The position numbers were made by a program, and so were the translations under genes. Of a stretch of DNA of 64,000 bases, positions 16,661-42,705 are shown in pieces. The number at the start of each line of letters is the position of its first letter. The first letter of the stretch is position 1. Under the pieces are notes generated by a model. That model was not told the DNA's origin, did no database searches, and was given only the letters and a program-made list of their open reading frames with translations. This DNA comes from an uncultured Phycisphaerales bacterium (lineage in GTDB: Bacteria; Planctomycetota; Phycisphaerae; Tepidisphaerales; Tepidisphaeraceae): NCBI GenBank assembly GCA_963758525.1, contig CAVWVQ010000003.1:4768001-4832000 (forward strand). Direction: 5' to 3'.

Positions 16661-17148
16661 TGGCTTGCCAGCAGACAGGGGCGGCAGATGTGTTCAAAAG
16701 CGCGGGTACGCCGATCGTGCCGTATCTGATCAGCGAAGCGTTTGGCGCGGTAACGAGCTGCGCACCGGATTAGGCTGTGGAGGTCATACTACCCCGGGCC
16801 GGCAATTCCTTTCTCAATTGACTAGACGGGCTTTTTCGCCAGTGCAATGCTGGGATTCGACCAGCGAATCGCCGAACTCCGCGCAGTGATTGTTCCTCCG
16901 TCGCCGCTCACTTCGTCGCACAGCCCAAGCTCGCCAAATAGCACACATGGCAAAACAGATCACCGTCCCACTGCTCACCCTTCAGTACACTCTCCACCAC
17001 CCTGAGATGTCAGGCGCGAGAATGTTCGCGAGAAGCGTTTTCTGATTCGCGTCCAACCAAGTGACCGCCGCTCTGTTTGCGCCGGACGGTTTCTTACGGT
17101 ACTATCGGGGTCAGATAGCATGGTGCGGAACAAGTGCTGGGAGACCAA

Positions 17149-18243
17149 ATGGCTACAGAAGATATTGAAGAGCGTCTGTTCGATGTTCTTGAAGGGATTG
17201 ATGACTCCGCAGAGGCAGAAGATCAGGAGGCACCATCTCACGTCCGCTACTCCATCAAGAGCTACGGCGCGGATTATCCTGTTGACGCACTAGTGAAAAG
17301 ACTTACCGCTGACAGCATTGTAATTCCACAGTTTCAGCGTGGATACGTATGGACATTGCCGCAGGCTTCGCGTTTTGTTGAATCTCTGCTTCTTGGGCTT
17401 CCCGTCCCTGCTATCTTTTTGTCTCGCGATCCGATCACGCAAAAGTTGCTGGTGATCGACGGCCAACAGCGTCTCCAGTCCCTCAGGTACTTCTATGAGG
17501 GACTATTTCGCGGGCGGGAGTTCGGCCTTAAGGGCGTGCAAGTGGAATTTGAGGGATTGACGTACAAGTCATTATCGCCGGAGGATAAGCGACGTCTCGA
17601 TGACGGAATACTGCATGCGATTGTCGTCAACCAAGAGGATCCGCAAAATGACCAGAGCGGACTGTATAACCTGTTTGAACGGATCAATACCGGCGGCACC
17701 CCATTGCATCCACAAGAAATCAGAACTTGCATTTACCCTGGGCCGCTGATCGAACTCCTGAAGGATCTTGCGGGCGATTCGAGCTGGCGCGAATTGTATG
17801 GTGCGGCAAGTTCCCGCGGAAAGGATCAGGAGCTTATCCTTCGCTTTTTCGCGCTGTACTTTGACTTGCAGAGCTACGAACGACCTCTCAAGCAATTCTT
17901 GAATAATTTTCTTAGTAAAAACAGGTCCTACAAGTTCCTTCCCGAAGCCAAAATGCGCACCGCGTTTAAGCATTCCGTGTCGTTTGCAACAAGCAATCTG
18001 GGGCCAAAGGCGTTTCGACCCGTCCGCAATCTGAACTCAGCGCTGATGGAGGCCCTGTTGATCGGAACAGGAAAGAGGTTGGAGAACGGCCCCATTCAAA
18101 ACGTTGACTCATATAGAAAGGCATATGAGAAACTCATGGCGGATCAGAAATTCATCGATTCGTTCAACGGAGCAACTACGGACGTCGAAAGATTGAAGTT
18201 CAGAATCGGTTCTGCGACCCAAGCATTCTCCCAGGTACCTTGA
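17149..18243 (+). CDS. DUF262 (GmrSD N-terminal/ParB-like) protein
   Basis: IPQFQRGYVW, ESLLLGLPVP, VIDGQQRL, LFERINTGG. Confidence 0.9.
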   Translation: MATEDIEERLFDVLEGIDDSAEAEDQEAPSHVRYSIKSYGADYPVDALVKRLTADSIVIPQFQRGYVWTLPQASRFVESLLLGLPVPAIFLSRDPITQKLLVIDGQQRLQSLRYFYEGLFRGREFGLKGVQVEFEGLTYKSLSPEDKRRLDDGILHAIVVNQEDPQNDQSGLYNLFERINTGGTPLHPQEIRTCIYPGPLIELLKDLAGDSSWRELYGAASSRGKDQELILRFFALYFDLQSYERPLKQFLNNFLSKNRSYKFLPEAKMRTAFKHSVSFATSNLGPKAFRPVRNLNSALMEALLIGTGKRLENGPIQNVDSYRKAYEKLMADQKFIDSFNGATTDVERLKFRIGSATQAFSQVP

Positions 18244-18244
18244 G

Positions 18245-18700
18245 ATGGCCGACAAGACGAGGCACCTGAAGGCGCGAATCGACCGGCTCTTCGTATTGGC
18301 AGATAAGTGCGAAAGCTACGAAGTCAAAGCTGAGTTGGCATGCTTTGCTGCCGTCCTATGCTCGGGGTTGATTGAGTCGAGTTGCCGCCAACTACTGCTT
18401 TCTTATACACATAAAAGAGCAGCGAGGCAGGTACTAGCATATGTGGAGAGCAACCTTCATTTCTTCCAAAATCCTAAATACTCAAAGATTGAGGAGTTGC
18501 TGCGGACGTTCGATCCAAAGATTGCAGAGGCATTTGTGAGTGAGACAACGGAGGCTGAAGTTGCCGCAATCGATAGTGTGGTGAATAACAAGAACAATCT
18601 GGCTCATGGTGAGAATCCAGGGCTTGGGCTGGAGGTGATGAAGGACTATTATCGCCTTGTGGTCTCGTCGCTGGAAAAGCTTGCAAAAGCTTCGAATTGA
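18245..18700 (+). CDS. HEPN domain protein (RiboL-PSP/MAE_28990-like)
   Basis: Helical 151 aa; QNPKYSKI and KNNLAHGE (Rx4H variant); 1 bp after DUF262 stop. Confidence 0.78.
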   Translation: MADKTRHLKARIDRLFVLADKCESYEVKAELACFAAVLCSGLIESSCRQLLLSYTHKRAARQVLAYVESNLHFFQNPKYSKIEELLRTFDPKIAEAFVSETTEAEVAAIDSVVNNKNNLAHGENPGLGLEVMKDYYRLVVSSLEKLAKASN

Positions 18701-24985: not shown

Positions 24986-27900
24986 TTACTTCTCCCGACG
25001 ATGCGATTCCCAGCGAATCGTCAGGCGGGTGGCGCCGTCCAGTTTTTGCCGCAGCTTTTTCATCAGCTCGTCGAACGCAACGGCATCGACAAGCTCGCCA
25101 TCGCCCCCATCGGCCTTGACCCATCCCGGCGAGGGTGGCGGGATCGGCGGTCCGACGACAGTTGGCTTAACTGCCGGCGGCACGATCAGCAACTTCACAG
25201 CGCGTTCATGCAGCGATGACAATGCCGGTGCGAGCGCGACGGCATGTTCGTCAGCGCTCGAGCGCCTCCCGCAGCTCTGTCAAAATGGCTTGCGCCGTCG
25301 GCTGCTTCTCCGTGCCCAGCCCGGCCAATCCTTCGATCACGTTCCAGATCGGCGCATCCAACGCACCTACCACGACTCCGGCTTTCTTCAGGCTCGTGCC
25401 CATTGCGGCCTCAGTCGTTGGCACCGTGGCCTTCATCAGGGTGTTGACTGTGTCCTCCCGGCCGGTTTGCACTGCCTCAAGCAGTTTCATCGTGGCCATG
25501 GCGGTGCGGAACCTCGGGCTCTTGTCCTTCTCGATATCGAACTGCGGCAGGATCTGGCTCAGTCGCGCCGCGAGTTTCGCCACTGGCTCCTGATGTTGCG
25601 CCGCCACTGTTCGCACGTCCTCGCAGAATTTCGCCAGGTTGATCGCGTTGAGCAGCGGCGAGGTGGTGACACCGAAGATTGTTGCACCGCGTTTGCTGGC
25701 CGCGTCCCAATCCGCCTTAGGCGGCAGGTGGATGGATCGCAACTCTAAGTTTGTCGGCACGTCATCTAGCGCTGGCTGGTACGGTCCGCCGTGCTGGAAG
25801 AACGAATGATTGATCTGCTCGGCAAACGTCAGAATCACCAGATTCCGCACCTCGCGCGTGAGCCCCATCGGTGTCGGCTCGTCGATCCATTTGATGAGCT
25901 TCTCCGTCGTCAGCAGCCCGCCAGCGGCGGCTTGCTTCCGCTCGAAATGGTTCTTCCACCAGGTGCCGAGAACCAGATGCGTTTCAGCCATCTCACCGAT
26001 CCGCAGGGGATTCACTACGAGCTTCAGCACCGTCCGATTTGGCTGATCGACCAATACGCGTCCATCCGGCGATTGCAGCGCCCGCTGTACCTCGGGGTAC
26101 ACCTTGTTCTTCAACATCGACGGCCGAATCTCCGCCTCGAACAGCGGGTGGCCGGGATACTGGTGATCCAGCGCCTGACCGACCAGGTGCTCCAGTTGCT
26201 GCCGAAGGTTCGCGCCAACGGGTGATTGAGGCTTGAAGCTGTCGTCGAGCGAGAAGACATGCGTGGCCAAATCGTGCGTCGTATCCAGTGCGCCGGGCGG
26301 CGGCGTGTCGGTGCCGTAGGCGGCCTCCAGGCATTTCACCATTTTCTGGCGGAGTTGGCTTCGCTGATTCTCCATCAACGACTTGGCCGACACCCGGTCC
26401 ATCGGCGACAGATGCGCCGCCAGCGCGTTGAACCGTTCCTCCTTCAGGCAGTGGTCGAGCAACACCAGCTTGCCCAACTCACGCTGCAGCTCCATGCTGA
26501 GAAACGACGGCAGCCACGCAATCGTCAGATGCCGTCCGCCGACCTGCGATGCGAACATGTCGAGCCGGGCGCGGTCGTCGGCCGGGCCGTGTCCATCAAC
26601 GTCCAGCGGGAAATCGACGATCACCTTCCAGGTCGGCCCCTCATTTTGCAGCGACACATCCGGCAGGTCTCGTACATTCGTAAACAACACATCAAATGAA
26701 CGCTTCGTGCCGCGCCAGATCGTTTCGTGCGTGAGCTGAAGCTCATCGGTGTTCTCGATGGCGAACTGCTCGCAGAGAATTTCCCAGATCTTCCGTCGTC
26801 GATTGCCATGGTTGTCTTCGCTCTTGGCCTTCTCCAGGATGCTCTCGATATCCACGCCGGTGAGCATGATCGAGATCGTCGGGTTGGCCGTGTCATCGCT
26901 GAATCGGATCTGGCCAACGCGGGCGACCCAGTTGCGGCACTTGCCAAGTACCATCTGTCCCTCGCGGCCAGGAATGGGCGAGCGGATTGTTCCGTGATTC
27001 AGAGCCGCCAGCTTCGCGCCGGTCATGCCGCGGAAGGATTCGACCTGCGGCACCAGTGCTGCCAGCAGAAGCGTTTTGATCAGCCGTTCGTCGTTGCGGA
27101 ACTTGGCTGCGACCGCATCATCCCACGGGCGCTTCAGCACGTCTTCGCGACGCAATCCATGCTCCTGCTCCAGCATGGGCAGCAGCTGCTCGTGGTACAG
27201 CCTTCGTGCCGAATCAAAGGACCGGCGCATTTCGTCGATGAACGCCTCGTCGCCGTGAGCGACGTAATCCCACAGGTCACCGGCCGGCACGATGTCGCCC
27301 AGCTTCAGCGTTTCCCGCTGATCAACCAGCAATTCCAGCATCACCTTCAGCGCCGTGCGTTCCCGCTGGAGCATCGACGACACGGCTACAAGCGTGTCCA
27401 TCAGCGCAGGGCTGAAGGGGTAGACCTTGCGGAACATCTCCCGGCTTCCCTGGCTGGTAAGCAGCGTGTCGGTCACTTCCTGGCGAAACCGCTCCGTCTC
27501 CTTGAACGCCGTGTCGATCTGCTGCCGTGCCCCCTCGCTCTTGGGCTTCAGCACGCGCTCCGCCGCGATGGCGGGAAGATTGCGGTCCTCCAGCTTGATG
27601 GTGGCGAAGCGCCCTTCCCAATGCTTCAGCGCATCGGAGAATCGAAGCTGCTCGACGCCGGTGATGTTTTCCCCGACCAGTTCCCGCAGATCCCTCTGCC
27701 GGGCGACGAAGCTGACGATCGGCACAGGGCGGTCAGCCCGCTGGGCTTCCACGAGTTTGGCCAGCTTCTGCCCCTCACGATGAACGAAGTCCACATCCGC
27801 CGCCCGGCTGGCGAGCCAGAGCACCAATTCATCTAGGAACAGCACTACGGCGTCGTATCCCAGATCCGCAGCATGGCGGCTGATGACCGACAGCCCATTG

Positions 27901-28625
27901 TCCAGATCGATAAACGCCGTGGCGTCGTTTGCCGCCGCGGCGGAGTACATCGGAAGCAGGTGCTTCACCAGATCGCCCACGAGCCGGCCGCGCTCTTCGG
28001 AGTTCGGCGGGCTCGTTGCCGCCTTCTCAAAGGACGCCGCATCCCACGCGCCTTCCAGATCACCCCACTCGCCGGATTTCTCTCCGCTGTTGAGCGCGGC
28101 CAGGAATGAATCGTCACCCATCCGGCTCCGCAGCACGCGGGCGTTTTGCAAGAGCAGTTCCGACTTATACACCGCCGGCACCGGCGCCTTTGGATGCAGC
28201 CGCTGGACATGCTCGGCATACCCGCCCAGGATCGCCGACTCCATATTGGCCGCGCCGATCATGTGGTACGGGATGAGCAAGAACTTACGGTTCTCCGTCC
28301 AGGCGTTGTGCCTAGCCACGACGGGCGCGAGCTTGGCGATCGACCGGGCATGAACATCCCGATTGAGCAGCAGGTGCAGGATCGCCATGAAATGGCTCTT
28401 GCCGCTGCCGAAGCTGCCATGGAGGTAGCAGGCCCGCGAGTTGCGCGCGTCGATCGCCCCCTTCACAAACGTCAGCGCATCGTCAAAGCAGGTCACGAGC
28501 TGGTCGGTGACGACGTAGGTGTCCACCGTCTTCTGCGAGTCTTGCACACCGGCAGACAAATTCAGGACGAAGTCGCCGCGGAAGACCTTGTCGGGCAGCG
28601 AGATCAATTCCTGGATAAGTGTCAT
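24986..28625 (-). CDS. pglY: BREX-2 ATPase PglY, frameshifted near C-terminus (ORF 28625-25251 continues in another frame to 24986)
   Basis: YLHGSFGSGKSHFM, LFLDELVLWL, SFVARQRDL; second frame reads ADEHAVALAPAL...TIRW up to the pglZ start. Confidence 0.9.
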
Positions 28626-28950
28626 TTTTCCACGCCCATTCGGTTCGCCTGCCTCTCCCCCGAACGTGGATTGGCCAAGCGGCGGTGATTGTAGTGCAAC
28701 GGTCACTAGGATCGAAGCGCGTGCAGAGCGGCGGAAATCCGATAGTGGTTGGGGTTGACGAGCCGAGCTTCAAAACGTCCGAGGCTGGTGTCCAAGTTCG
28801 AGCGACAACGGTAATCGCGTCGCAAACCGGATATTCGGTATACTCGCGCGGACTGAGATGCCACTCTGCGCACACCCTCGAATCTGTCCTAAGTTGAGCG
28901 CGATCGACAATTGACCGAACCGACCGTTTCGGCGACAAAACATAAAGAAC

Positions 28951-29730
28951 ATGGGTGAATCGAACGCGCAAGCTGCCCGGAAGAAGTACCTGAACCCTCC
29001 GGTCGTTGAGATTGCGGCGGACTTCCAAATGCCACGCGGTAGTGGCCAGGACTGGGATTGGAACCAGGCCGCTTTATTCCTTGAGAACGTAATCGAGTCT
29101 GGCGAACCCCTCGAAAGCCTTCAAGAAATGAAAATTCTTCGGCAGCGCGGGAGAGCGTCGAAGCATTCCGGAAGCAATAATCCCGAAATTCAGCTGACTG
29201 AGAACACACTGCGGCAGCGGCGTTACATAGTGGGCCGCTCGCATTGCATTCAGATTGCTCCCGAACGTCTGATCGTTAACTGCGTCAAGAATGAGCACCA
29301 GACGCCCACTTACCGCGTCTTGGAGCCACTTGTCTTGAAGTATCTGGCTGCTTATCGGGAGTTTTTCGGCCCCGATGGGATAAAAAGCCTATCGTTGAGT
29401 TACGTAGATGATGTTACGCTGCCGGTTAGTCCGGCCGTGGATTTGTCCGAGTATTTCAATATTCGCGTTGATTTTCCCGAGGTGTTTGGCAGTACCCAGA
29501 GCTTCAATGTACGGGCGGAGTGGGCTTCCGGTCCTCTCGCGGTACGATTGGAGCTGAAAGACGTGAAACCGTTCACGTTTCGCCTCGACTGGCAGGCAAC
29601 CAAATCGCTCCCCCATGCATCGCCAATTAGTGATGCGATGGTTTCACTGGGTGAGTGCAGGACAGTATTGAGTGAGCGTTTCGAGGCGTCGCTGACTGAC
29701 CGGTCGCGACAGCTTTTCAACCCGGAGTAA
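28951..29730 (+). CDS. TIGR04255-like family protein
   Basis: YLNPPVVEIAADF N-terminus; IKSLSLSYVDDVTLP; FEASLTD C-terminus. Confidence 0.7.
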   Translation: MGESNAQAARKKYLNPPVVEIAADFQMPRGSGQDWDWNQAALFLENVIESGEPLESLQEMKILRQRGRASKHSGSNNPEIQLTENTLRQRRYIVGRSHCIQIAPERLIVNCVKNEHQTPTYRVLEPLVLKYLAAYREFFGPDGIKSLSLSYVDDVTLPVSPAVDLSEYFNIRVDFPEVFGSTQSFNVRAEWASGPLAVRLELKDVKPFTFRLDWQATKSLPHASPISDAMVSLGECRTVLSERFEASLTDRSRQLFNPE

Positions 29731-29734
29731 AGAA

Positions 29735-30427
29735 GTGTTTTCTTACGCACCTCCTCCCAGCGAGTACGTGAATCTCGCCCCTCTGCACGAGGGGGCGTCA
29801 ATTCAGGAAGAGCAGTCATGGCTGGCTCGAAGCATTGAACAGATCACGATGAGCGGCGTGCCGCGTGACTCGGTTCGTGTCGGCCGTACCGTCTACCCGT
29901 TTCGGCGGCAGTTGGTGGAGCGAATCGGACCCGCATTCTACTCACTCGATGGATTCTTCCCGCACATCGTTGGCGAGGGAAAGAATTCGGAAGCTGCCAG
30001 AAGGGATTTTGAAGAGAAACTCCATGTCGCGTTCCAAGATACTGCCCGAACGGCTGACTTTGATCGGACTATCGTCCAGCAGCGTCTCTGGTTGCTCTGT
30101 TCGAGCTTGATAGACATCGCAGCGTATGACCAGCTGCGCACAGTGACCGTCACCCGGATTGGGAAGGTGATCGGCAGTCCCCGCGCAGGCCTGATCAAGA
30201 TTCGATGGGCATCGGGCGTGGCTCAGAGAATTGACGCCAGAAAAGCAGTGCCGGAGTTTGCTGCCCTTCAAATTGGCCAGTGGTTTGAGGCCGTAATTCG
30301 TACAAACTACCTGAGCGCCAAGCTATTGTCCGTCGAACACGTCGCACGGATCCGAACCCCCGTTTTTACCGCCACCGCCCGCAGTGAGTTCTGGAACTCA
30401 GTCCTTCCACCCGCGAAGCAGGCCTGA
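29735..30427 (+). CDS. Hypothetical protein with HicB-like segment
   Basis: IVGEGKNSEAARRDFEEKL resembles the HicB G.G.T.EEA motif; 4 bp after upstream stop. Confidence 0.55.
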   Translation: MFSYAPPPSEYVNLAPLHEGASIQEEQSWLARSIEQITMSGVPRDSVRVGRTVYPFRRQLVERIGPAFYSLDGFFPHIVGEGKNSEAARRDFEEKLHVAFQDTARTADFDRTIVQQRLWLLCSSLIDIAAYDQLRTVTVTRIGKVIGSPRAGLIKIRWASGVAQRIDARKAVPEFAALQIGQWFEAVIRTNYLSAKLLSVEHVARIRTPVFTATARSEFWNSVLPPAKQA

Positions 30428-30444
30428 GCGACTCGCCAATCCAG

Positions 30445-31461
30445 ATGACTCACGGTCGCTGCTATTTTCTCGATGTTGGGCAGGGGACCGCCAACGTCAT
30501 TCTTCTCAAGGGGCGGCGAGCGATCGTGCTTGACGCCGGTCCCGCCAAGCACGTGGGTGTGGTGCATCGGCTCCTGAAGGATTTCGCTGGCACGATCGAG
30601 TGTGTGCTGCTCTCGCACCACGATGCCGATCATGTCGCCGGATGGGAGGAGATCGCCGCTGATTTTCAGGGAAACATCGGGACTGTCTGGTGCATCCCTG
30701 ATGCGCATCCCTCGAAAGGGCAGCGCATTGATATCACCATGCACTTGGCGAAGCAGGGAAAAATACCGCTTCCAAGTCCAGCCTTGGTCGACTCGCTGAA
30801 GGCTCCCAAAATAATCTGGCAAGATGACCAAAGCCCAATGCGTCTCGAAATCCTCTATCCGGATCTTTTAGGTCAGTACTCAGCGATCAAAGGGAAAGAC
30901 CACAATCGGGCCAGCGTCGTGGCCGTTCTACGGTGCAATAAGGAATCCATCCTTTTCCCAGGCGATTGTGATATCGAAGCATGGAGACGGTTACGCGATG
31001 TTTCGCCTCACTTGCCGCTGAAAGTCGATCTGTTAGCGGTACCGCACCACGGCGGGCTACCAAGCCAGTCTGCGGCCGACTTGCAGTGGCTCTACAGGGA
31101 TGCCGTGAAGCCCGGCACTGCCATCTTTAGCGTCGGCACATCCAACGACGAGGGACACCCACGCGCAGAAGTGGTTCGGGCGTTACGAGATCAGAGCGTC
31201 CGTGTCATGTGTACCCAGATCACTCCGCAATGCCATACCAGCCTTGAGCCATTGCGGCCTGGAGTGATCCGCCCACTGGCGAAATACTCGACATCAACTG
31301 CTGATCCAAGCTTCACCAGCTCAAAGAAGCTGAGCCGTCATGTTGGTTGTGCGGGGACGGTATATGCCGAAGTGACGGACGACCGAATCATCGTTCAACG
31401 AGTGACTGAACACCGCGATGCTGTGGACAATCGAGTGAAGCATCCGCTGTGTCGCCCATAG
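30445..31461 (+). CDS. ComEC/Rec2-type metallo-beta-lactamase-fold hydrolase (stand-alone)
   Basis: FLDVGQG, SHHDADH, LFPGD, VPHHG, GHP motifs; no TM domain. Confidence 0.88.
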   Translation: MTHGRCYFLDVGQGTANVILLKGRRAIVLDAGPAKHVGVVHRLLKDFAGTIECVLLSHHDADHVAGWEEIAADFQGNIGTVWCIPDAHPSKGQRIDITMHLAKQGKIPLPSPALVDSLKAPKIIWQDDQSPMRLEILYPDLLGQYSAIKGKDHNRASVVAVLRCNKESILFPGDCDIEAWRRLRDVSPHLPLKVDLLAVPHHGGLPSQSAADLQWLYRDAVKPGTAIFSVGTSNDEGHPRAEVVRALRDQSVRVMCTQITPQCHTSLEPLRPGVIRPLAKYSTSTADPSFTSSKKLSRHVGCAGTVYAEVTDDRIIVQRVTEHRDAVDNRVKHPLCRP

Positions 31462-31463
31462 GC

Positions 31464-34400
31464 TTATTCCGCGCCCTTTCTTCCGCGGCTCGCGCCTTTT
31501 GCCGGCGGCGCCCACGCCCTCACCTCATCCACCGTCTTCCCCATCTCCTTCGCCTCGTCGTTGATGAAGTCGCGGTAGTAGTCGCCCAGGCCGACGCCGA
31601 AGTCGGGGTGGATGGCGTTGTGCCACTGTAACACCCAGGGGAGCAGTTCCAGCATCGCGGCCAGCAATGGCACGCGGCGCTCCGGGGGCCAGCCCTCGCG
31701 CTCTTTCATCGCCATGTAATAGGCGGCCACCGCTTGCAGTTGCTGGAGATGGTCGAACCCGGCCCAGGTGATGACCAGCGTCGGGTCGGCATCGCGCTGG
31801 CAGTGGGGGAAGCTGACAAATCGCTCCTTGGGAACGTCCAGTTTGCCGCGGAGGCGCCAGATCGGGCCGGGGAGCATGTCGGCGGATTTGTATTTCGGCG
31901 GCACGGGGATGTCGCCGACCTTCGCCTTCTTCTCGGCCTTGGCCTGCTGCTCGGTCAGGTATTGCGGGTTGGCCTGCCCTGAGCTGTTCGAAGGGTCGAG
32001 CTTCGTTCTGGCGTCGATGGCGTCTTCCAGCTGTTGCAGATCCCACACCTGCTCCCACACCCGCCGGTTCCGCAGGCCCGATTCCTTGTAGCGCAGCACC
32101 GCCAGCGCCGGCACCGCCTCGTCCTCCACCAGTTCAGCCACGAGCTTTGTCAGGTCGAAATCCTCGCGGCCACGGTACAGGGCGGCCACCTGCATGAAGT
32201 CATCGTCCTGTCGCACGCGGTCGGCCAATTGGGCCACGCTCATCACGCGGGGCTCCTTCTCATCCCAAAGCAGCGATCGCGGAGATAGTGCTTCCGGCTT
32301 CTTTGCTTCAACATCTTCGTGGTCGGAGACGACCAACGGCCATCCTTCAAGCCGGCCCAAGAGCCAAATGCCGCATGCGTCCGAAAGCTCGTTTCCCGTT
32401 CGATTGTGATTGAATAGCCCTTGGATGCCGATCCAGCGCCGTTTGTAGTGCGGTTCCTCAATTAGCTGTAGCTCTGGGGATTGTGAGATTGCTGCGATCC
32501 GCTTCAGCCAAAGGGAGCGTGCCGGCTCCGGCCAGTCTTGCGAAACTGAAGCAGGGACCGAAAACCCGTCGACGTTGCGCTGGGCAACGATACAGAATGG
32601 GCGATCACCAGCGTCGAGTAATGGCTGATCTGGCGCTTCGATTGGACCCAGCGTTGCTTCGGTGCAGAGTCCGAACATGACATAGCAGGTGAAATCAATT
32701 TCCTCTTGGAGCCAGATCATTTTTGAACGTAGTTGTTGACGTATTTTCGTCCAATCTGCCCAGCGATTGCTGAGCGCGGTTGTGGTCGTGGCACCGGACG
32801 CCAAACATCGTTTAGCAGTCAACGCGGCATATTGTACTGACAACTGATCCTGGCGATCGGCAAGTTGCTGCATCCGATCTCGTAGCTTGCCGGACAGCCA
32901 AGCTGCCGGGATCGGGAGATTAGCGAGCATTGTGCCATTGAAGGCATAGGGAACCTTAGACCTTTCGCTTATGCGTATGCCATCACCACCCATCATTTGC
33001 TTCTGATGGGCGACCTGTTTCATCCAGAAGCACGTCGTGGAGCTATTGAGGAGCCCGAGTAGGGTTAGGTGCTGGTCAACAGTTGCGTCGGCGGGGAGCT
33101 TGATGATCGGCGCAGTATTTTTGAATACCTTTCCACCGCGATCGAGCAGAAAATGGTTGTGTGTTGCGACTTCCGCAAACACTATTGAGAGCGGCGTTCG
33201 GCGCAGCGGCTCGGCCAATAGGCCGTATTCGTACCACGCGAGTCCACGTTCAAACTGCGTTTTCCGAAACCACGCACGATTTTGAAGGTTCGTTTTGAGG
33301 GGCCATAGTGCTCGCTCCACCGGGGTACTCGGAGCTACGACTCTGTTACTGGCGTCGTAGGGGAAGATGACTGCTACACATTCTGCCAGCAGCCAGTCTC
33401 TGATTCGGTCGCCTTCAACGAAGCCAATAGAGTCAGTAGCGCCAAGCCCCTTCCTGCGGAATACGAGAGGTTCGTCGGAAAACGCATCGTCTTCAAGCGT
33501 CACCACGCCAATTCCGGTTCGGTCAATCACTTCGCTCAGGACGTTGCCCTCCGCATCATCCAGCGTCGCTTTCAATTCGGCCGCACCGCCACCGCCGATG
33601 CTCCAAGGGTGGTGGTGAAAGCTGTGAAGATCGGTATCGGAGACGCTGACAAATGCGCTCTGAGTGCCGGGATTGTCGATCTGGTCAAGGATGGCAGACC
33701 ATACATTTCCGCGTGCCGGATCGGCGGGTGTAGACGGCTCGCCTTTAATACCCATCACGGCGCGGATGGTAGAACTTGTCGGACGGCGATTCCGCCCGAA
33801 GAGAATCACCGTCGGCGTACCGTGTCCGGGGATGTAGGCACCCGCCGTGTCAACGACATGCGTCAGTTCCCACCGAGGTATGTACTGTTCGATCAGCTTC
33901 TTGCCGAACTCGCGTTTCATGAAGCTGTTTGAGGTGATCATGCCAACAAATCCTGCGGGAAACTCAACTCGACTGTCTGCGGCAGTATCGGTTGAGAGAC
34001 AAACAGCTAGGTCAAAGAATCGCTGAAAGAATGGCACTGCTAGCGAATACTTCATGTGGCAGGAGCCGAACTTCTGCCGGTACTCCTCGTTAAGGGCCTT
34101 GTCCTTAGGAGTGATGTACGGCGGGTTACCCACGACGGCGTGGTAACGCTGGCCGAGGATGTTTCGGAGGAGCGGTGCATCTTCCGTCTCATAGACATGG
34201 CCGATCGGGTCCGCTCCAAACATGAAGTCTTGGCGCCCGCTGGCCCCTTTTGTCTGGTCGCCACGATCATCGAGAAGCGGCCCATGCAGCAGCGAGTCCC
34301 CCGCGGCGACATGAATCGTGAACCCCGGAGCATCAGCAAGCCGGTGGATGTCACAAGCCCGCAGCGCGGCGACGAGCAAACGAAAACGGGCGATGGCAAC

Positions 34401-35297
34401 GGCGTACGGATTGAGGTCCACGCCATACACCCCGTCGAGCGCCCGCTGGGCCAGCACGCGGATGTTGGTGGCCGGCTCGTGTTTCACCCACAGATCGAAC
34501 AGGCGATGGAAACCGCCGAGCAGGAAGTGGCCTGAACCGCAGGTGGGGTCGATCATCCGCACCTGCTGGAAGCCGAACTCGGCGATGGCCGGCGTGAGCG
34601 TGCGATCGAGGATGAACTCCTCGACAAAGACCGGTGTCTGGAGCAGGGCGAACTTCTTGCGAGCGGATTCACTCAAGTCCTGGTAGAGGTCGCCGAGGAA
34701 GCGGGTGGGATCTTGGGGAAGGCACGGAGGCACGGAGGCACTGAGGCACGAAGGTTCGGAAAAGACAGGGTCCGTAAAATCATGGATTAGCAGGCCGGTG
34801 CTGGCATCGCGCCGGAGGAAGAAATTGCGGAGGGCCATGGCGCCGTCGCCGCTGACGCCGAGAGACCAGAGGGGGTTGTGGCGTTTGTCGAACAGCTCCT
34901 TCATGGCCGGAAGCTGGGCGACCTGCTCGAAGACCCACTGGAGGTACTCGCGGTCGGAGTGCGTGGGGTGTTTCTGGAAGTAGAGTGTGTGCTCATCCTC
35001 AGCCCGCTGTCGGCGCTCGCCAGGTCCCGACAGTCGCGGCGGGTCGATCAGGTGGTTGTCTTCGCAGAAGCGGACGAACACACATCCGAGAATCCACGCG
35101 ACGCCCGCTTGGGTGATCTGCTCATCCCGCCAGACTTCATACGCCTGGGCGGTGCGGTTGGCCGCCTTGGCAGCGGCGTATTGGTCGTGTAGCGGCTGAT
35201 CGACTTCAGCTTGATTGGTGCAGCGCTGGCGAAGATCGGACTCCAGCGTGACCAGGAGCCTTTGCAAGTCGGCGAGTAAGGCTTTGGCGTTGATCAT
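31464..35297 (-). CDS. pglX: BREX-2 adenine-specific DNA methyltransferase PglX
   Basis: TRFLGDLYQDLS, DPTCGSGHFL, VVGNPPY, NSFMKREFGK, PVPPKY, RGKLDVPKERF. Confidence 0.95.
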   Translation of the reverse strand: MINAKALLADLQRLLVTLESDLRQRCTNQAEVDQPLHDQYAAAKAANRTAQAYEVWRDEQITQAGVAWILGCVFVRFCEDNHLIDPPRLSGPGERRQRAEDEHTLYFQKHPTHSDREYLQWVFEQVAQLPAMKELFDKRHNPLWSLGVSGDGAMALRNFFLRRDASTGLLIHDFTDPVFSEPSCLSASVPPCLPQDPTRFLGDLYQDLSESARKKFALLQTPVFVEEFILDRTLTPAIAEFGFQQVRMIDPTCGSGHFLLGGFHRLFDLWVKHEPATNIRVLAQRALDGVYGVDLNPYAVAIARFRLLVAALRACDIHRLADAPGFTIHVAAGDSLLHGPLLDDRGDQTKGASGRQDFMFGADPIGHVYETEDAPLLRNILGQRYHAVVGNPPYITPKDKALNEEYRQKFGSCHMKYSLAVPFFQRFFDLAVCLSTDTAADSRVEFPAGFVGMITSNSFMKREFGKKLIEQYIPRWELTHVVDTAGAYIPGHGTPTVILFGRNRRPTSSTIRAVMGIKGEPSTPADPARGNVWSAILDQIDNPGTQSAFVSVSDTDLHSFHHHPWSIGGGGAAELKATLDDAEGNVLSEVIDRTGIGVVTLEDDAFSDEPLVFRRKGLGATDSIGFVEGDRIRDWLLAECVAVIFPYDASNRVVAPSTPVERALWPLKTNLQNRAWFRKTQFERGLAWYEYGLLAEPLRRTPLSIVFAEVATHNHFLLDRGGKVFKNTAPIIKLPADATVDQHLTLLGLLNSSTTCFWMKQVAHQKQMMGGDGIRISERSKVPYAFNGTMLANLPIPAAWLSGKLRDRMQQLADRQDQLSVQYAALTAKRCLASGATTTTALSNRWADWTKIRQQLRSKMIWLQEEIDFTCYVMFGLCTEATLGPIEAPDQPLLDAGDRPFCIVAQRNVDGFSVPASVSQDWPEPARSLWLKRIAAISQSPELQLIEEPHYKRRWIGIQGLFNHNRTGNELSDACGIWLLGRLEGWPLVVSDHEDVEAKKPEALSPRSLLWDEKEPRVMSVAQLADRVRQDDDFMQVAALYRGREDFDLTKLVAELVEDEAVPALAVLRYKESGLRNRRVWEQVWDLQQLEDAIDARTKLDPSNSSGQANPQYLTEQQAKAEKKAKVGDIPVPPKYKSADMLPGPIWRLRGKLDVPKERFVSFPHCQRDADPTLVITWAGFDHLQQLQAVAAYYMAMKEREGWPPERRVPLLAAMLELLPWVLQWHNAIHPDFGVGLGDYYRDFINDEAKEMGKTVDEVRAWAPPAKGASRGRKGAE
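34720..34754. repeat. 8-bp tandem repeat (aggcacgg, aggcacgg, aggcactg, aggcacga, agg) inside pglX
   Basis: Read directly from sequence; encodes PSCLSASVPPCL. Confidence 0.85.
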
Positions 35298-35312: not shown

Positions 35313-36344
35313 TCACAGCTTGGTGTTATTTAGATTCGCTTTCTGATCCTTTAGCGCGACCGCGGCGGCGTGCGCATTCTCCAGTGACCCGATGAGCGCG
35401 TGGAGGCTGCGTACGAACTTTGTAGCTGGTTCTTCCGCTGCCTCGGCAAGATCTTCGCGGGAGTCGGTATTGTTATCGCAAAGTTCCCGAAGCCGCTTGT
35501 CGGCAGCCGCTTCTCGAACCGATGTTGCTGAAACCAGATCAATCGTGCCTAGAGCCGGTCGGTATCGGTATTGCGTGGCCCAGCGCGATGCGAGATCTTC
35601 CGCATCTTCCGCAAGCATACTTGCCGTTCTTCTGTCGCTATCACTCAACACAGCTTGAAAGCTGTCGTAGACGATTCCCTTCCAGTCGTCGCGGAACCCA
35701 TGGTCGAAGCTCCGCGATAATCCTTCCAGTGCACGTGAGTACACGAGTTGCAAAGCCCCAAGCAGGTCCCCGATTTCAGCTGCGAGTTTTGACGCTGCTA
35801 AGTCCTGGTACGCGTCAACCTCAGCCATGAGTTTGGGGAGTAGAGCGTTTAGAACCGCGGCGATCTGCTCAGGATCGGTGAGCAGAATACCGGCCTCATA
35901 ATTTGCTTTCGTCCCCGGAGTGAAATTCGCCGAGCCAATGTAGGCAATATTTTCTGTGGCGACGATCTTGCTGTGATTGTGATGGTTAAAATAGACGGAC
36001 GTCTTGGGGGGAAGTGTCTCTGGCGCAAGCCGGCGGAAATGTTCGTCGATGTCTTTCCGTGCCTTTGCTCGATTCTCGTCACTCCAATCGTGATCGCCGT
36101 AGGAATCGCGGCGCGAGGGTATCCTGCAAATGATAACAGACGTCCGGTCGGCGCGATGCTCACGTATGTGATGCAACAGATCCTTGTCTCCGTTGAGTAT
36201 CGCCCACGTCACCACGTAGAATCGCTTGGATGTCTTCGCATCATCAAGAACTCGCTGAAAGGCGTATTCGTTCCGCGTCAGGAGGAGTTCGATGTTCGCC
36301 GCTAAATCAAGTTGTTCGTGAATCGCCTGGGTCGGGTCAGTCAT
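35313..36344 (-). CDS. Phospholipase D-family nuclease-like protein
   Basis: NHSKIVATENIAYIGSANFT (HxKx4E...GSAN) and NYEAG; helical C-terminus. Confidence 0.82.
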   Translation of the reverse strand: MTDPTQAIHEQLDLAANIELLLTRNEYAFQRVLDDAKTSKRFYVVTWAILNGDKDLLHHIREHRADRTSVIICRIPSRRDSYGDHDWSDENRAKARKDIDEHFRRLAPETLPPKTSVYFNHHNHSKIVATENIAYIGSANFTPGTKANYEAGILLTDPEQIAAVLNALLPKLMAEVDAYQDLAASKLAAEIGDLLGALQLVYSRALEGLSRSFDHGFRDDWKGIVYDSFQAVLSDSDRRTASMLAEDAEDLASRWATQYRYRPALGTIDLVSATSVREAAADKRLRELCDNNTDSREDLAEAAEEPATKFVRSLHALIGSLENAHAAAVALKDQKANLNNTKL

Positions 36345-36413
36345 CGGGTTACTGTCCTTCCTCTTGTCGGTGATCGTGTGTTACGGCGGTAGCCACCAAT
36401 GCTTTTTCTGGGC

Positions 36414-37196
36414 CTATTTCGCATCTAGGTGCGGAACGGAGGACATCTTGAGCGACAATTCGTATTCCCTCAACTCGACGTTGGGGAGGTCGGCGGTCGC
36501 GTAGCGAATTTTCTCGGAGATGGACTGGCCGATGATGACGCCACGAACCATCTTCCCACCGGCGATGTGACGCTTCACCCAGCCGAGGTATCGCATGAGC
36601 TGGCCGCAGACAGTATCGGGAGCTTGATCGACTTTCAGCTCGATCACGACGAGTGTGCCACGGCTGTCGACGGCTAGGATGTCGATGCGACCAACCTCGG
36701 TGACGTACTCGATTCCGTCGACGTCATCCTGCACAAAGAGCTGCAAACCGGGCTCGATGTCGGAAAGGTGAAGCGCCAAGTAATCGCGCAAGTGGGCTTC
36801 GGCAGCGAAGCCCTGACTGGTGCCTTCACCAATGGCAGGCTCGTCCTCGTCGCCGGGTGTTCCAGCAGCTACCTTCATCAAGCCAGAATCGGTTTCGACA
36901 ATCCGCCACGGCCCCTGTTTAACCGGATCGTACCATTCCAGCTTTCCTCTCTCGGGCCGAAACAGGAAGTCATACTGCGTGTTGGCGGCACGCGGTTTCT
37001 TGTTTTCAGGATAGTGGACCCGTGAAGCGTGGTTGACGGTACAGACGATTATCTGGCATTGAATCGTGCTGAGGTTCGTCCCCGGGTACTTTCTTAAAAT
37101 CCAGTCGCGGACTGCGACGTTCGTCGTGGGACTTCCGAGTGCCTCGACGGCCTCCTTGATCATCTGCCAGACGTAGGGCTGTTTCAGATCCTTCAT
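36414..37196 (-). CDS. NucS/EndoMS-like PD-(D/E)XK endonuclease with N-terminal winged-helix domain
   Basis: EAHLRDYL, GRIDILAVD, VIELK, GQLMRYLGWV. Confidence 0.82.
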   Translation of the reverse strand: MKDLKQPYVWQMIKEAVEALGSPTTNVAVRDWILRKYPGTNLSTIQCQIIVCTVNHASRVHYPENKKPRAANTQYDFLFRPERGKLEWYDPVKQGPWRIVETDSGLMKVAAGTPGDEDEPAIGEGTSQGFAAEAHLRDYLALHLSDIEPGLQLFVQDDVDGIEYVTEVGRIDILAVDSRGTLVVIELKVDQAPDTVCGQLMRYLGWVKRHIAGGKMVRGVIIGQSISEKIRYATADLPNVELREYELSLKMSSVPHLDAK

Positions 37197-37262
37197 TCAT
37201 CATCTCCTGCGGCTCATAGCAAAACCCGTGGATGTCAAGCTAAACCGACCGTCGCTCAACAG

Positions 37263-37559
37263 TCATGAAGCAGGACCATCTGATGTCGATATCTTCCTTA
37301 TCCATGTCATAAGCTCTTTCTCCGTCTCGATCACATGCGGATTCTGTTTCAAATTCTCATGAAGCGAAAACTCACTGTACCCTGTCGGCATGTGAGTGGC
37401 CTTAGATACCACAAACGAATTTGGTTTTGATCGCGTTAGATTTGTCATGAGGCTGCGAGCAGGAAGTCCGCCACACGTTGCTCCAACCGCCTCATAGGTC
37501 GCTCGTTGGTGGTGAGTGCTCAGGAGTTTGATCACGTCGTTCAGGTCTTCCATCCCCAT
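37263..37559 (-). CDS. Small protein resembling ATL/MGMT DNA-binding domain
   Basis: ATYEAVGATCGGLPARSL...FVVSKATHMPTG pattern; between pglW and NucS-like gene. Confidence 0.5.
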   Translation of the reverse strand: MGMEDLNDVIKLLSTHHQRATYEAVGATCGGLPARSLMTNLTRSKPNSFVVSKATHMPTGYSEFSLHENLKQNPHVIETEKELMTWIRKISTSDGPAS

Positions 37560-37618
37560 ATCGTTTCCTTTTTTCCAACGTTGCTGGCCTTGGTCTTTGC
37601 CGTGAACCAGATGCGGTT

Positions 37619-40600
37619 TCACGAAGGCGTTTCCACGTGCCCTCGGTGTTCATTTGTCAGCCATGCGTCCGGAACCCAGGCCCACTGGCCGTGCCCCAGC
37701 ACGGGAACCGGGCGATTGTCGATCGTGGGAAGCGATTTCTGGTGATCGGTGGCAGCGAGGATGAGCCAGATGCCCGGCACGCTGCCATCGCGGCCGCTGC
37801 CGTCGCGCAGGTGTTCAAGAAATTGGAGCTGCTCGTATCGCGCGATGAGGCCGGGGTACATCAGGATCACCGGGCGATCCATGGCAAGCACTTGTTTTTC
37901 GACTTCGGCGACGGCGGCTTTGACAAGGAGCTGGAGCTTTTGCCAGTCACGGCCAGTGGACCCATCGGCGTCGGCCTTGAGGACAACGCTCCAGTCAACC
38001 TTGCGGATGGAGGCTTGCCGTTGGAGTTCCTTGATGACCAGATCATCGAGACTCCTGACATCGAGCCCGAAGCGATCTGCCATGTCGCCGGCGCATCGCT
38101 GCACATGGCGTGGGGCAACGGAGAGCGCAATGAAGCTGCCGCTTTGGAGGGATCGCCTGAGGCGATCGTCAAAGTCGCGCGCCTCGGCAACCTCAGGACT
38201 GACTGCGAGTGAGACGGTGTTGGCTGTTCCATAGCGCGGCAAAGTCGACGTGAATGTGGTGGTGGCCAGCACTTCGGTGGGGAGGACATACGCCTGCTTG
38301 CCTTCGTCCCAGCGAAGGGTCCAGCCCGCTTCTTTGAGAAGGTGATCAATCTCGGGGCGGGTGGGAAGCGGTTCGGCGCCGGGATAACGGCCGCTGACAC
38401 GCTCGCGAATCTGGTCGAGGGTGACCTCGGTCGATCCTGAAAGCGCGCCGACGGCAAGCTTTAACGCGCGGCTTGCAGCCATGCCGCGGGGATAGATCTC
38501 CATGCGGCTGGAGACGGCGGCGCCATTGGACGCGGCGGCGGCGAGCTTGAGCAGCCGGGTGTCGTCGATGTACGGGGATTTTTCCGGGCGTTTGATCCGG
38601 CGGAGTGATTCGATCGCACGCTGCGGTGTGACCAATGGCTCAGCACCGGCGAGCTTGTCGGCTTCGTCACCGACACGGACTGCGTAGTCGCAGAGAGCGT
38701 TGGGATCTTCCTCGTCATACGCTTTGGCGACCAGATTTAATTCACCCCGGCGGCGGGTGGCCAGCCGCGGCTGGACGAGGCCCCGTTCGGCTTCGACCGC
38801 AGCGCGGACGGCCGCTGAAGCGAGCAGCGACCGCTGCGGCTCGCGGAGGGTGGAACCGCGCGTTGCCAGTAATGCGCCAGCAAGTTCCGCGGCGGACATG
38901 ACCCCGCCCTGGCTTTCCAGAATTTCCAGCAGTTCATCGCGGACGAAGGTAACGGACTTGTTTTTGAGCCAACGACGGCGTGCACTGTCGATCCATTGAT
39001 TCACCCGCGCGGTGCTGACCTTCATCTGTTTGCCGATGTCGGTCTGCGTGGGCCAATAGCCGCGGGCGGGAGTATCGAGTCGGTCGAGATTCAAGAATGC
39101 CCGGATTGCCTGAGATTCCAGATCTGCTTCTTTGCTCGGCCTGCCGCCGGTGATGCTCTGGACCAGGAGTTCGACACTCCGGACCACATCGCCGGAATCA
39201 CCGTCCGTGGTGGTCACTGAATCTGCGGTGGCGGAGGGCTGAACGTCCGGGAAACGAGCGCGAAGCTTGGTGACCGCCTCCGCGAGGTGCCGGCGCGTCT
39301 TGTTGCCGACGCCCTTCATCTTGTAGATGCGCTTGGTCGGCACCTGGAGCAATTCGCGCACGGTGTTCACGCTCAAGCGGTCGAGCGCCGTCACGGCGCG
39401 TGAGAAAAGCCCCAGGGAGGCCACGGGAGTATCCAACGTGCAGTTCGCGATGGATTTATCCAGATCGGGCGACGCTACAGAATCCTGGGTGTGTGACAGG
39501 CGCGTGGCCGAGAGGAACGCATCCCGCCAGGCCTTGAGCATGTCGCGGCAGTTGTCGAAACGCTGGGTGGGATCGCGGCGGAACGCCTTCGCAAAGAACG
39601 GAAGCAGGCCGTCGCGCACCTCCGCGTCGAATTTCTCGCCGTCGATTGTGGCTTCCGAGGTAAGCACTGATGGATCGGAGCGGCCGTCGCCCCACTTGGG
39701 AAGGTCGCCGGTGGCCATCTCATACAACGTGGCCGCCGCGGACCACCGCTCGGCCGGCAGGTCCCATCGCTGCGGCTTGCGGACCGTCAGAAACGGGTCC
39801 ATGTAACGGGAGGTGCCGGCGCGAATGTTTTCCGCGGGAGTTCGGGCCAGGGAGAAGTCGAAGAGCACCAGATGCAGTTCGTTGCCGCGGCCGACGGGCA
39901 TGACGCCAATATTGTCGGGCTTGATGTCGCGATGCGGTACGCCTTTTTGTTCGAGCCAGTCGATCGTCACGAGAAGATCTTCACCAAACCGCTGCAGCAG
40001 ATCGGGATGGAGCTTGCCTTCATCGCTGATGCGCTTGGCGAGAGTTTCGTTGCCCGCGCGCTGCATGAGAATCCCGGTCAGGCCGCTGAGCTGTACGGTG
40101 CGATCGACCTCAACAATGTATTGATGGCGCAGTTTGCGGAGGACATCGGCTTCGTCTGCGAGCCGGCTGCTGAACTCCGGTCCCCGGGCGACTTTTAACA
40201 CGCGCTCGGTGCCGTGATCGTCGACGAGATAGACCTCAGACGTGGAGCCGGAACCAATACGGCTCTTGATGATCAGGCCGCCCTCAAGGCGGTCGTTGAT
40301 CTTGCGCCCAGGGGGTGGGCGACTTGCTCGGGCTCGGGACTGGTCAACTGATCTTCCACCTGCTCAAGCTGCTTGAGGAACTCATCGACGGTGGCGTAGC
40401 GGCTGGTGACTTCCGGGAAGGTTGAGAACTGGATCAATTCCTGAAGCGCGGGCGAAGTGCCGTCGACGGCCGTGGAAATCTGCAGGCCCTCAGAATCGCG
40501 GATTTTCTGATGCAGTTCGATGAAACTGGTAGCCGGCGGTCGCCCGGCGAAGAGGTGGTACGCCAGCGCACCCAGAGAAAAGACGTCGAGATGTTCGCCA

Positions 40601-41844
40601 CCCTCATTGTCACGCATGGCCTCGGGCGCCATGTAGCCGGTGCTGGCGTCTTCCACGAGGTGTTCGAGGTGCAGCGTGGCGCTGACACCTTTGCCGCCGG
40701 GGCTGTTGGTGCTGCTGGCGATCTCGCGGGCAGCGGTCTGCCAGTTGAAGATCTTCAGGTCGGGTTCTGCGGCCGACGGATCGATGACGAGGATGCTCTG
40801 GGGTGAAAGGCTGCGGTGTTGTACGCCTTTGCCGTGAGCATACTTCATTGCTTCGGCGACCTGGCGCAGGAGAGAAAGTCGAATGTCTTCGCCAAACTTC
40901 CCCGCGTTCTCCGTGAGATAGTGGTCGAGGCGGACCGCCTTGGGATGGTGTTCAAAGATGAGTGCCGGGCCGAACTCGTTATCGGTGAATCCCTTCACGC
41001 CCAGGATGCCCCGGTGGCTCAGATTGTCGAGCACCTGATATTCACGCTTGGCGGCGCGAATGAGCATTTCCCGCTGTTCCTTCGAAGCCGCAGTTGAGAG
41101 CGTGTATCGCCGGATTCGGCGGCGCGTATCGGGGAGCGAAACGTGCACGCCTTCCCAATCCTGCCAGCCCGGCCCTTCCATGAGCAGCGTCTTGAGTCTG
41201 TAATCGGAGATGAGGCGATAGCGCTCCGACTGACGGATGCCAGCCTGATCCATCGCCCGGCTCACGCATCCCATGATCGCGCGATCGATTCGGGGTGTGC
41301 GGGACAGATCGACGCCCGGGATGTTGCCGTCGGTCAAAGCAGCAGTAATGCCGGGGCGTCCATCACGATCGGGCGTGGCGGCGCGATCCCGCGGGCAGAT
41401 GCGAGTGCGAGCGTGCTCGGGCAGTTCGATTTGCAGCCCCTGCGCAGAGACGAACAGCAGCGGTTCGAGATAGGGACAGCGATAATCCTTGAACGCCTTC
41501 TGATGTTTGAGCAGCCCGGCAAGCTTCTTGCTCTTGCTGTTCGCCAGCAGCAGCGGATTGTCAACCGTCTGCACCCGGCCCTCGTGCTTCCACGTCCAAC
41601 TTGCGGCATCGCCGGCAAGCGTGCCGGGATGGCTCTTCACTTCCACAAGAAAAAATCCGACCGGGGTGAGGAGCAGGACGTCGACTTCGTAGATACTGCC
41701 GTTGTCGGAGATGAAGTTGAAGCCCTGCCAGGCCAGATACGGATCGGAATCGGGGAGCAGACTGCGCAGATAATCAAACGCCTCCTGTTCCCAGGGAAAC
41801 TCCGATGGCGTAATCACTTTCCAGCGCGTCGGCCCCATCGCCAT
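37619..41844 (-). CDS. pglW: BREX-2 Ser/Thr kinase PglW, frameshifted between its two kinase domains (about 40273-40363)
   Basis: NERD domain (EVDVLL..VEVK), kinase 1 (HRSLSPQSIL, YMAPE), kinase 2 (IGSGSTSEV, HRDIKPDN, DFSL), RNAP alpha-CTD-like (KGVGNKT). Confidence 0.92.
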
Positions 41845-42035
41845 GAAGTGCTTCCTCGCGTCAAAGATGGGAGATCTTCCCGCCCTCCGAACGTCAGTCA
41901 GAGCGGAGAATCTACCGGAGCAGTGGGCATTCCGCCAGAAAGCAGAGAGGCACCGACAAGACCAGACCCACTCCCTGCTGGTTGCTCTCCTCGAAGGCAC
42001 GACGTCAAGCAAAAACCATATGCGTTCCGTCGTCT

Positions 42036-42566
42036 CTATCCGGGTTGCCCGTGCCGATTCAAGTGTTGTTGCGCGAGTGCTTCACGTCCCCGGTCGCGCA
42101 CCTCGTTTCGGACATGTTCCCATTGAAATCCCACTACAAGCCCGCTACGGCGGTAGAATTCAACCCTTTTTTTTAGATCCTCCCAGTAGCTTTTCCCAAA
42201 TTCTTTCGGCGTCCTTGGGTCGAAGTGCTGGAGCTGCCGAGCAAGGTATTCAAGACCAGCCTCGTATTCGAGGCGGTCCAGTTCGGCCCGGAGGTTCTCC
42301 ATGTCCTTGCGTACCTGTTCCCAGCGGTTCTCTCTTTCGCCCGGAGTCATTTCAGTCTTAAATCCTGGCCTGAAGCCATACGCCTCGTGCAGAGCGTCTC
42401 GGGACCTCGCTAACTCGTTCTCGAAGTCTTCAAGGGTGTAGCCCTCTGGGATTCCTTTGGCCTGCCAGTCCGCAATCCTCTGCTTATGGAGTTTCATCTG
42501 CCTCGCCGATGCCGCCGCTATCAGGGAACGCGTGCTCTTCATCAATGCGCCTCCAGCACTGGACAA
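42036..42566 (-). CDS. Hypothetical helical protein
   Basis: 176-aa ORF; GGAGG RBS before internal ATG (MKSTRS); no recognised motif. Confidence 0.5.
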   Translation of the reverse strand: MSSAGGALMKSTRSLIAAASARQMKLHKQRIADWQAKGIPEGYTLEDFENELARSRDALHEAYGFRPGFKTEMTPGERENRWEQVRKDMENLRAELDRLEYEAGLEYLARQLQHFDPRTPKEFGKSYWEDLKKRVEFYRRSGLVVGFQWEHVRNEVRDRGREALAQQHLNRHGQPG

Positions 42567-42705
42567 TCACATCTCGCTGACAACAGTCTGTCAGGGCGTT
42601 GCGATAATCGTCTCAAACAAGCTCCGGCAGGAAGTCCTCTATTCGAGTACGATGATGGCAAATCGATGCTTACTCAAATCATCCGGCTTTCGGAGGATAC
42701 CTTCA

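Follow-up and report, generated by a model that had tools for sequence, protein, structure and literature searches.

The bacteriophage exclusion type 2 (BREX-2) region of an uncultured Phycisphaerales bacterium holds a cassette of three genes that form a conserved, mobile, and co-inherited unit. The cassette lies in a 64,000-nucleotide stretch of contig CAVWVQ010000003.1 (assembly GCA_963758525.1, positions 4,768,001 to 4,832,000), called the window here. By open reading frame (ORF) calls and profile searches, gene A (28951..29730, +; 259 aa) encodes a TIGR04255-like protein and gene C (30445..31461, +; 338 aa) a soluble ComEC-type metallo-beta-lactamase (MBL) hydrolase; gene B between them (29735..30427, +; 230 aa, GTG start) was characterized by ORF call and structure model. 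It is very probable that these genes have a toxin-antitoxin (TA) or defense role of some kind. More specifically, judging from sequence and predicted structure, the cassette may be a toxin-antitoxin-chaperone (TAC)-type anti-phage system with a chaperone-antitoxin-DNase mechanism, a reading to which we give a probability of about 0.5.

Three genes inherited together

A protein search with gene C gave 130 homologues, and an alignment of 104 of these was used to retrieve 80 genome and 80 metagenome loci. With a threshold of 170 bits or more, 96 of the resulting 160 loci fall in the full-length clade of gene C; one without the anchor motif was dropped, the fragment L039 was excluded, and 82 non-redundant loci were kept. 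Where at least 800 bp of upstream sequence is available, gene B stands immediately ahead of the MBL gene in 72/72 non-redundant clade loci (some by weak, OB-only matches). Among the 60 with at least 1700 bp upstream, gene A is present ahead of B and C in 48. Neither A nor B was found at any of 63 other MBL loci, 52 of which have sufficient DNA. Co-occurrence of A and B with C is thus far above chance. The seed profiles for A and B came from independent homologue searches (five and two sequences) and were later iterated on the same loci; before iteration they already matched the genes just ahead of C at dozens of loci. Inheritance is joint as well, the pairwise identities of A, B, and C being correlated over 35 loci (Spearman 0.78-0.81; 0/2000 permutations as high). 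The tripartite module proposed in the first-pass annotation, which was made from the window's sequence without database searches, is therefore conserved.

Distribution of the unit is patchy and its insertion sites vary. Gene B occurs in 4/401 genomes of the phylum, host included (about 1%), always with A and C; named relatives of the C clade are mostly Planctomycetota. Flanks differ between loci, with housekeeping genes often as neighbors, and the host genome has one copy. A plasmid search returned 95 records, all below 60% identity, with distant MBLs in other contexts among the 20 matches listed, three of which were opened. Frameshifts or stops are seen in A, B, or C of family copies L008, L009, L094, L115, and L119. 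The trio has no match in family libraries, and no publication on it was found in the open literature searched.

For gene C, the metal ligands H58, D62, H63, D174, H201, and H202 are present in 104/104 homologues and H238 in 103/104, with the motif reading HxDxDH in 61/104 and HxHxDH in 43/104. The closest solved relatives are ComEC MBL domains (E 8e-21), but the protein covers just positions 441-660 of TIGR00361 and the ComEC membrane channel domain is absent. Neither a hydrophobic segment (maximum 19-residue hydropathy 0.8-1.1) nor a membrane or export signal was detected, in agreement with the initial description of a soluble ComEC-type enzyme with intact metal motifs. The C-terminal extension carries invariant C256, C263, C302, and C336 and a near-invariant histidine, a Cys4 arrangement that is likely a zinc site. 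We propose that gene C encodes a DNase toxin, predicted to be metal dependent.

In a careful, unrooted MBL tree (36 rows, LG+G4), the gene C clade is a single group (95/98), distinct from ComEC-like MBLs and sister to a set of kinase-receiver MBLs (90/94). These sister-clade proteins share the Cys4 pattern and are encoded on two plasmids, downstream of genes for a methyltransferase, an ATPase resembling histidine kinases, and a receiver. The plasmid operons (L165:821-5990 and L166:871-6005) read N6-methyltransferase, GHKL/histidine kinase, receiver, and MBL with Cys4 tail.

The gene B model (predicted local distance difference test score, pLDDT, 89.6) comprises a low-confidence N-terminal tail of ~40 aa, a domain of three strands followed by a helix (GxGxT motif), an oligonucleotide/oligosaccharide-binding (OB) fold, and a C-terminal helix. 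Fold-search matches are confined to the OB part (model residues 125-199); their Z scores of up to 7.5 are in the tool's "common" range, yet the matches are consistent over dozens of OB proteins and include single-stranded DNA (ssDNA) binders. The GTG start is backed by homologues with matching N-termini (P0005, L001). Across 67 gene B members there was no Pfam HicB match and no meaningful Pfam match of any kind; the ESM Atlas gave no usable match, and a PDB sequence search one weak match (6ar7, E 0.018). The HicB-like motif reported earlier for this gene has only indirect support: the predicted strands and helix with GxGxT fit the partial RNase H domain at the HicB N-terminus, and the N-domain aligns (E 1.4e-5, probability 80) with the second gene of a TIGR04255-X-HicA-like trio. 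That second gene is itself without a Pfam HicB match, and its HicA-like neighbor falls under the cut-off. No HicA lies beside gene B, whose neighbors are gene A and the MBL gene. An antitoxin or regulator role is proposed for gene B. Its OB fold had been overlooked at first, as had the Cys4 tail of gene C and the COMMD-like replacement of gene A described below.

Gene A alone scores 15.9 bits against TIGR04255 (E 0.0086), under the curated cut-off of 30 bits, but all 51 orthologues match the family (best E 1e-21), and a profile of the family at large aligns with that of gene A across 249 columns (probability 99.9). By these comparisons, gene A is a divergent TIGR04255 protein, as first suggested. 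Modeled from 5 sequences (pLDDT 79.6), it is predicted to fold into a pseudo-twofold beta-sheet with helices in a TBP/AdoMetDC-like arrangement. Fold searches of PDB, VIA wide, and viral collections gave no clear relative (Z at most 7.3; one viral model at E 6e-8, TM score 0.46), and a PDB sequence search returned nothing. No PADLOC model matches any of the 51 A or 67 B members, no protease fold was seen in the models, and the cassette contains no protease. We found no publication on TIGR04255 (CHP04255, IPR026349) in the open literature searched. The slot that gene A occupies is proposed to be that of a chaperone or sensor.

A first component of many pairs

A search of 301 genomes of the phylum found TIGR04255 in 49, and the best 30 loci were inspected. 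At 23 of the 30, it heads a trio ending in a recognized toxin or a recurring toxin-like gene. Pfam matches in the toxin slot are PIN (4), PemK (1), weak HicA (1), and DUF7689 (1); three further proteins we take, by eye, to be HEPN- or RES/ART-like. A recurring nameless protein with the pattern QGD..TxxCD fills the slot at 13/30 loci, and 7/30 are undecided. Middle genes include weak matches to Xre-like helix-turn-helix (HTH) antitoxins, and many have long low-complexity N-termini. Since the downstream toxin slots vary, TIGR04255 appears to be the shared first component of otherwise unrelated TA-like pairs. The sensor/chaperone-antitoxin-nuclease module suggested at first thus stands as a tripartite unit, and its order of third component, antitoxin, and nuclease gains comparative support from the other TIGR04255-led trios; the roles assigned to its members are still a proposal.

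The QGD..TxxCD proteins are a candidate new toxin family. Their trios (L170, L174, L176, L178-L181, L183-L185, L191, L193, L197) consist of TIGR04255, an antitoxin-like gene, often with an Xre-like HTH and a long hydrophobic N-tail, and the QGD..TxxCD gene. No Pfam or NCBIfam match was found in the members scanned (about 6 of 13). A MazF/PemK identity was considered but found no support when they were compared by hhalign with a single PemK sequence (probability 0.5).

The first slot of the cassette is exchangeable. Among the 12/60 loci without A, five (L012, L031, L032, L135, L151) hold a COMMD-like gene of ~225-240 aa in that position. Four of the five score with the Pfam COMM domain (E 1.2e-4, 3e-4, 5.4e-4, and 0.022), L032 alone exceeding the cut-off (22.5 vs 22.4 bits); L151 was joined to the group by BLAST alone, and two of the five proteins are 85% identical. 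In four of these COMMD-led loci, gene B lacks the HicB-like part and retains the OB half; COMMD-linked variants of B preserve nothing but its OB fold and C-terminal helix. A quick tree suggested two independent COMMD swaps, which we do not claim because a single COMMD clade is compatible with the data and scored higher (approximately unbiased test, p-AU 0.65). At L012 (1872-4654), the COMMD-like-B-C cassette adjoins phage portal and capsid genes, and its B protein has an extra N-terminal domain of ~120 aa.

Gene A of the window is not itself COMMD-like; the likeness to prokaryotic COMMD-like proteins lies in the COMM-domain match of the first gene at the five family loci. Such proteins are described as ring forming, of unknown function, and found in a type VI secretion system-like context in Myxococcota, and the accessible part of that account describes no TA or MBL link (PMC13392464). 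No publication tying the COMM domain to phage defense was found in the open literature searched.

Known systems, proposed mechanism, and competing explanations

The closest validated system is DS-42 (PRO1), of which the cassette is a distant layout-relative. According to Tables S6-S8 of the DefensePredictor study (PMC13092281), DS-42 consists of three E. coli genes (238, 190, and 363 aa), the last a ComEC-like MBL, and it scored as defensive and was replicated; the one row found gives phage Bas1, a -log efficiency of plating of 1.1, and smaller plaques. The accessible main text of that source does not mention DS-42 outside these tables, and no publication on DS-42 and phage was found in the open literature searched. 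Both systems have three coupled genes of similar size, a second gene with a low-complexity N-terminus, and a ComEC-type MBL last. DS-42 and ten relatives were retrieved for 11-sequence profiles, by which the two MBLs are homologous (probability 99.4; ~17% identity). In contrast, the DS-42 MBL sits on a long separate branch and lacks the Cys4 tail (a CT motif alone aligns), DS-42 gene 2 has no HicB-like match, and DS-42 gene 1 does not match TIGR04255. The unrooted tree places DS-42, the gene C clade, and the kinase-receiver MBLs together against ComEC-like MBLs (99/84), and grouping DS-42 with the gene C clade is not rejected (p-AU 0.33). The early statement that this is not a named system is correct only in part: it holds for the family libraries, but DS-42 shares the layout and ends in an MBL homologous to gene C. 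Whether A and B are orthologues of DS-42 genes was also considered, and the idea was dropped because alignments with 3- or 11-sequence profiles are non-significant.

TAC systems provide the model for the proposed mechanism. In HigBAC, CmdTAC, and MqsRAC, as described in 10.1101/2024.02.24.581848, a SecB-like chaperone stabilizes a tail-bearing antitoxin and senses phage proteins. The cassette shares with these a third protein linked to varied TA pairs and a middle antitoxin-like protein with a flexible tail. For ComEC-like MBLs, PMC12799240 reports gated DNase activity in Hachiman, AVAST, and Canu that is turned on by proteases. Gene C shares the ComEC-like MBL fold with the pro-nucleases of Hachiman, AVAST-1, Lamassu, DRT, and Canu and with 6A-MBL, and has weak matches to the LmuA, RTasMBL, Avs1a, PDC-M48B, and 6A-MBL models, all far under cut-offs or partial. 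Unlike those systems, the cassette has no protease, caspase, SMC, or reverse transcriptase (RT) partner.

Under the TAC-type reading, gene C would cut DNA, as suggested by its homology to ComEC and to MBL defense nucleases. Gene B would bind and gate C by means of its OB domain and C-terminal helix, which no variant has lost. Gene A may bind the flexible N-terminal tail of B, keeping B stable until infection, and a COMMD-like protein would fill the same slot where A is replaced. Diversion of A by a phage protein or stress could then lead to loss of B, destruction of DNA by C, and abortion of the infection.

Several observations weigh against this proposal. HicB-like domains normally neutralize HicA, not an MBL, and the B proteins of the COMMD clade lack the HicB-like domain. 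Compared with TAC, the gene order is reversed, with the third gene first, and the effector is an MBL; the tail of B is N-terminal, not C-terminal, and its aromatic fraction is not enriched (0.107 vs 0.108), which differs from the C-terminal, disordered, aromatic-patterned ChAD of TAC antitoxins. SecB is absent among the 50 matches listed in the gene A fold search, where the best Z of 7.3 is to other folds. A and B compared with DS-42 genes 1 and 2 gave E 0.11 and 0.22, no better than cross-pair controls with the 11-sequence profiles, and the toxin label for the 13 QGD proteins, which do not align to PemK, is our inference. Seven of 60 loci have B and C with no recognizable first gene, and a single viral contig carries the gene C clade. 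Association with defense islands, as checked with 89 hand-picked flanking proteins from 56 loci and no background control, is weak: 2 loci have full-length defense matches, and 5 have matches that are generic or partial.

An activating role for gene B would account for part of the same evidence. In ComEC itself an OB domain accompanies the MBL, and B could be a DNA-loading subunit that with C rebuilds a soluble ComEC nuclease, with A as the sensor switch; the cassette would still be a defense system. Retention of just the OB fold and C-terminal helix in the COMMD-linked variants, the ssDNA binders among the OB matches, and a similarly patterned domain (by eye) at the end of DS-42-type middle genes are consistent with this idea. 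We nevertheless consider it unlikely, as most B members keep the HicB-like domain and the slot behind TIGR04255 is usually antitoxin-like (Xre-like HTH or HicB-like).

Slightly more doubtful again is a stress or addiction TA pair, B-C, with no phage role and A as an optional accessory. The 12/60 loci without A, seven of them without a recognizable replacement, and the mostly housekeeping flanks could be read this way, but A is kept and co-inherited in 48/60 loci, the layout-matched DS-42 protects against phage, and the sister MBL clade is found in methyltransferase/restriction-type operons. A housekeeping or metabolic hydrolase operon, related to DNA salvage or competence, is improbable: the ComEC MBL domains closest to C and the frequent housekeeping neighbors would suit it, whereas occurrence in ~1% of phylum genomes, the changing neighborhood, the lack of a membrane or export signal, a separate weak ComEC-like match in the host genome, and the position of the C clade apart from ComEC-like MBLs argue otherwise.

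The BREX-2 locus and implications

In the window, the cassette lies antisense between pglX (31464..35297, -; NF033451, 1399 bits) and pglY (25251..28706, -; profile search), both host flanks outside the cassette. ORF calls confirm the close packing noted at the outset, with gaps of 4 bp (A-B) and 17 bp (B-C) and a distance of 2 bp between the stops of gene C and pglX (the latter at 31464). The minus-strand host locus reads pglW (two pieces), a 119-aa ORF, NucS/DUF7669, PLD, pglX, [cassette], pglY, pglZ, brxD, brxHI. GC content at third codon positions is 0.61-0.64 in the cassette vs 0.69-0.78 in BREX core genes. The divergent intergenic segment between pglY and gene A (28707..28950) is expected to hold promoters for both; a sigma-70 consensus was not found there, and a promoter scan gave nothing above chance.

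Other features of the region may be noted. pglW (37619-42012, -) is frameshifted near 40300 at a short C run and is a single frame in four relatives; this may be a genuine break or a sequencing error. pglY is possibly truncated (25125-25251, -): it stops at model position ~1180/1296, within the match, and most relatives are longer. The pglW-pglX interval (35313-37622, -) holds further cargo, namely the family-less 119-aa ORF (GC 0.49), a PDC-S02-like nuclease of the DUF7669-NucS type, and a protein with a PLD domain. Beyond brxHI, at 17134-18700 (+), is a GmrSD_N and HEPN (RiboL-PSP) pair with Menshen NsnA/PD-T4-2-like matches, and an HNH nuclease stands ahead of pglW (42457-43524, +); the region is a wider defense island.

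The position within BREX is not a property of the family, as 0/99 family loci (58 of at least 5.5 kb) carry a BREX-2 gene. pglX abuts pglY in 5/15 other BREX-2 loci with upstream DNA, and four of the remaining ten, fetched at length, each have 2-7 kb of cargo in the gap. The pglX-pglY gap is a cargo hotspot, into which the cassette would have inserted opportunistically. Splitting of BREX transcription, to which the first-pass annotation drew attention, is not special, and in S. coelicolor pglWX and pglYZ are described as separate operons 6 kb apart (PMC4365076). In the accessible text of a 2026 survey of BREX accessory genes, the terms MBL, ComEC, and HicB do not occur (PMC12839542). In one other genome (G022, L242:8476-15636), the gap holds an AbiE-like pair (by eye) and an antisense TIGR04255 trio whose second and third genes differ from B and C. 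The suggestion that the cassette guards or backs up BREX-2 and is triggered on its inhibition, for which its location and the trio of G022 could be cited, is very improbable and was set aside, given the absence of family linkage, the differing genes and unrelated cargo in the same gap, and the natively separate operons.

The main interest of the cassette lies in its exchangeable first gene, by which TIGR04255 and prokaryotic COMMD-like proteins become testable parts of one switch. The TAC-type reading suggests how the DS-42 layout, validated but so far unexplained, may work, and adds protease-free control of ComEC-type DNases in immunity. If A-type proteins are swappable phage sensors like TAC chaperones, the sensor repertoire would be wider; if not, the cassette would be another uncharacterized three-gene defense candidate. 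Still more tentatively, TIGR04255 can be envisioned as a widespread, undescribed non-SecB chaperone or sensor class ahead of many unrelated TA pairs, with bacterial COMMD-like rings able to fill its slot and the cassette as its MBL-DNase member. This would provide a first function for TIGR04255 and for prokaryotic COMMD-like proteins, and the Commander ring would then be rooted in bacterial immunity.

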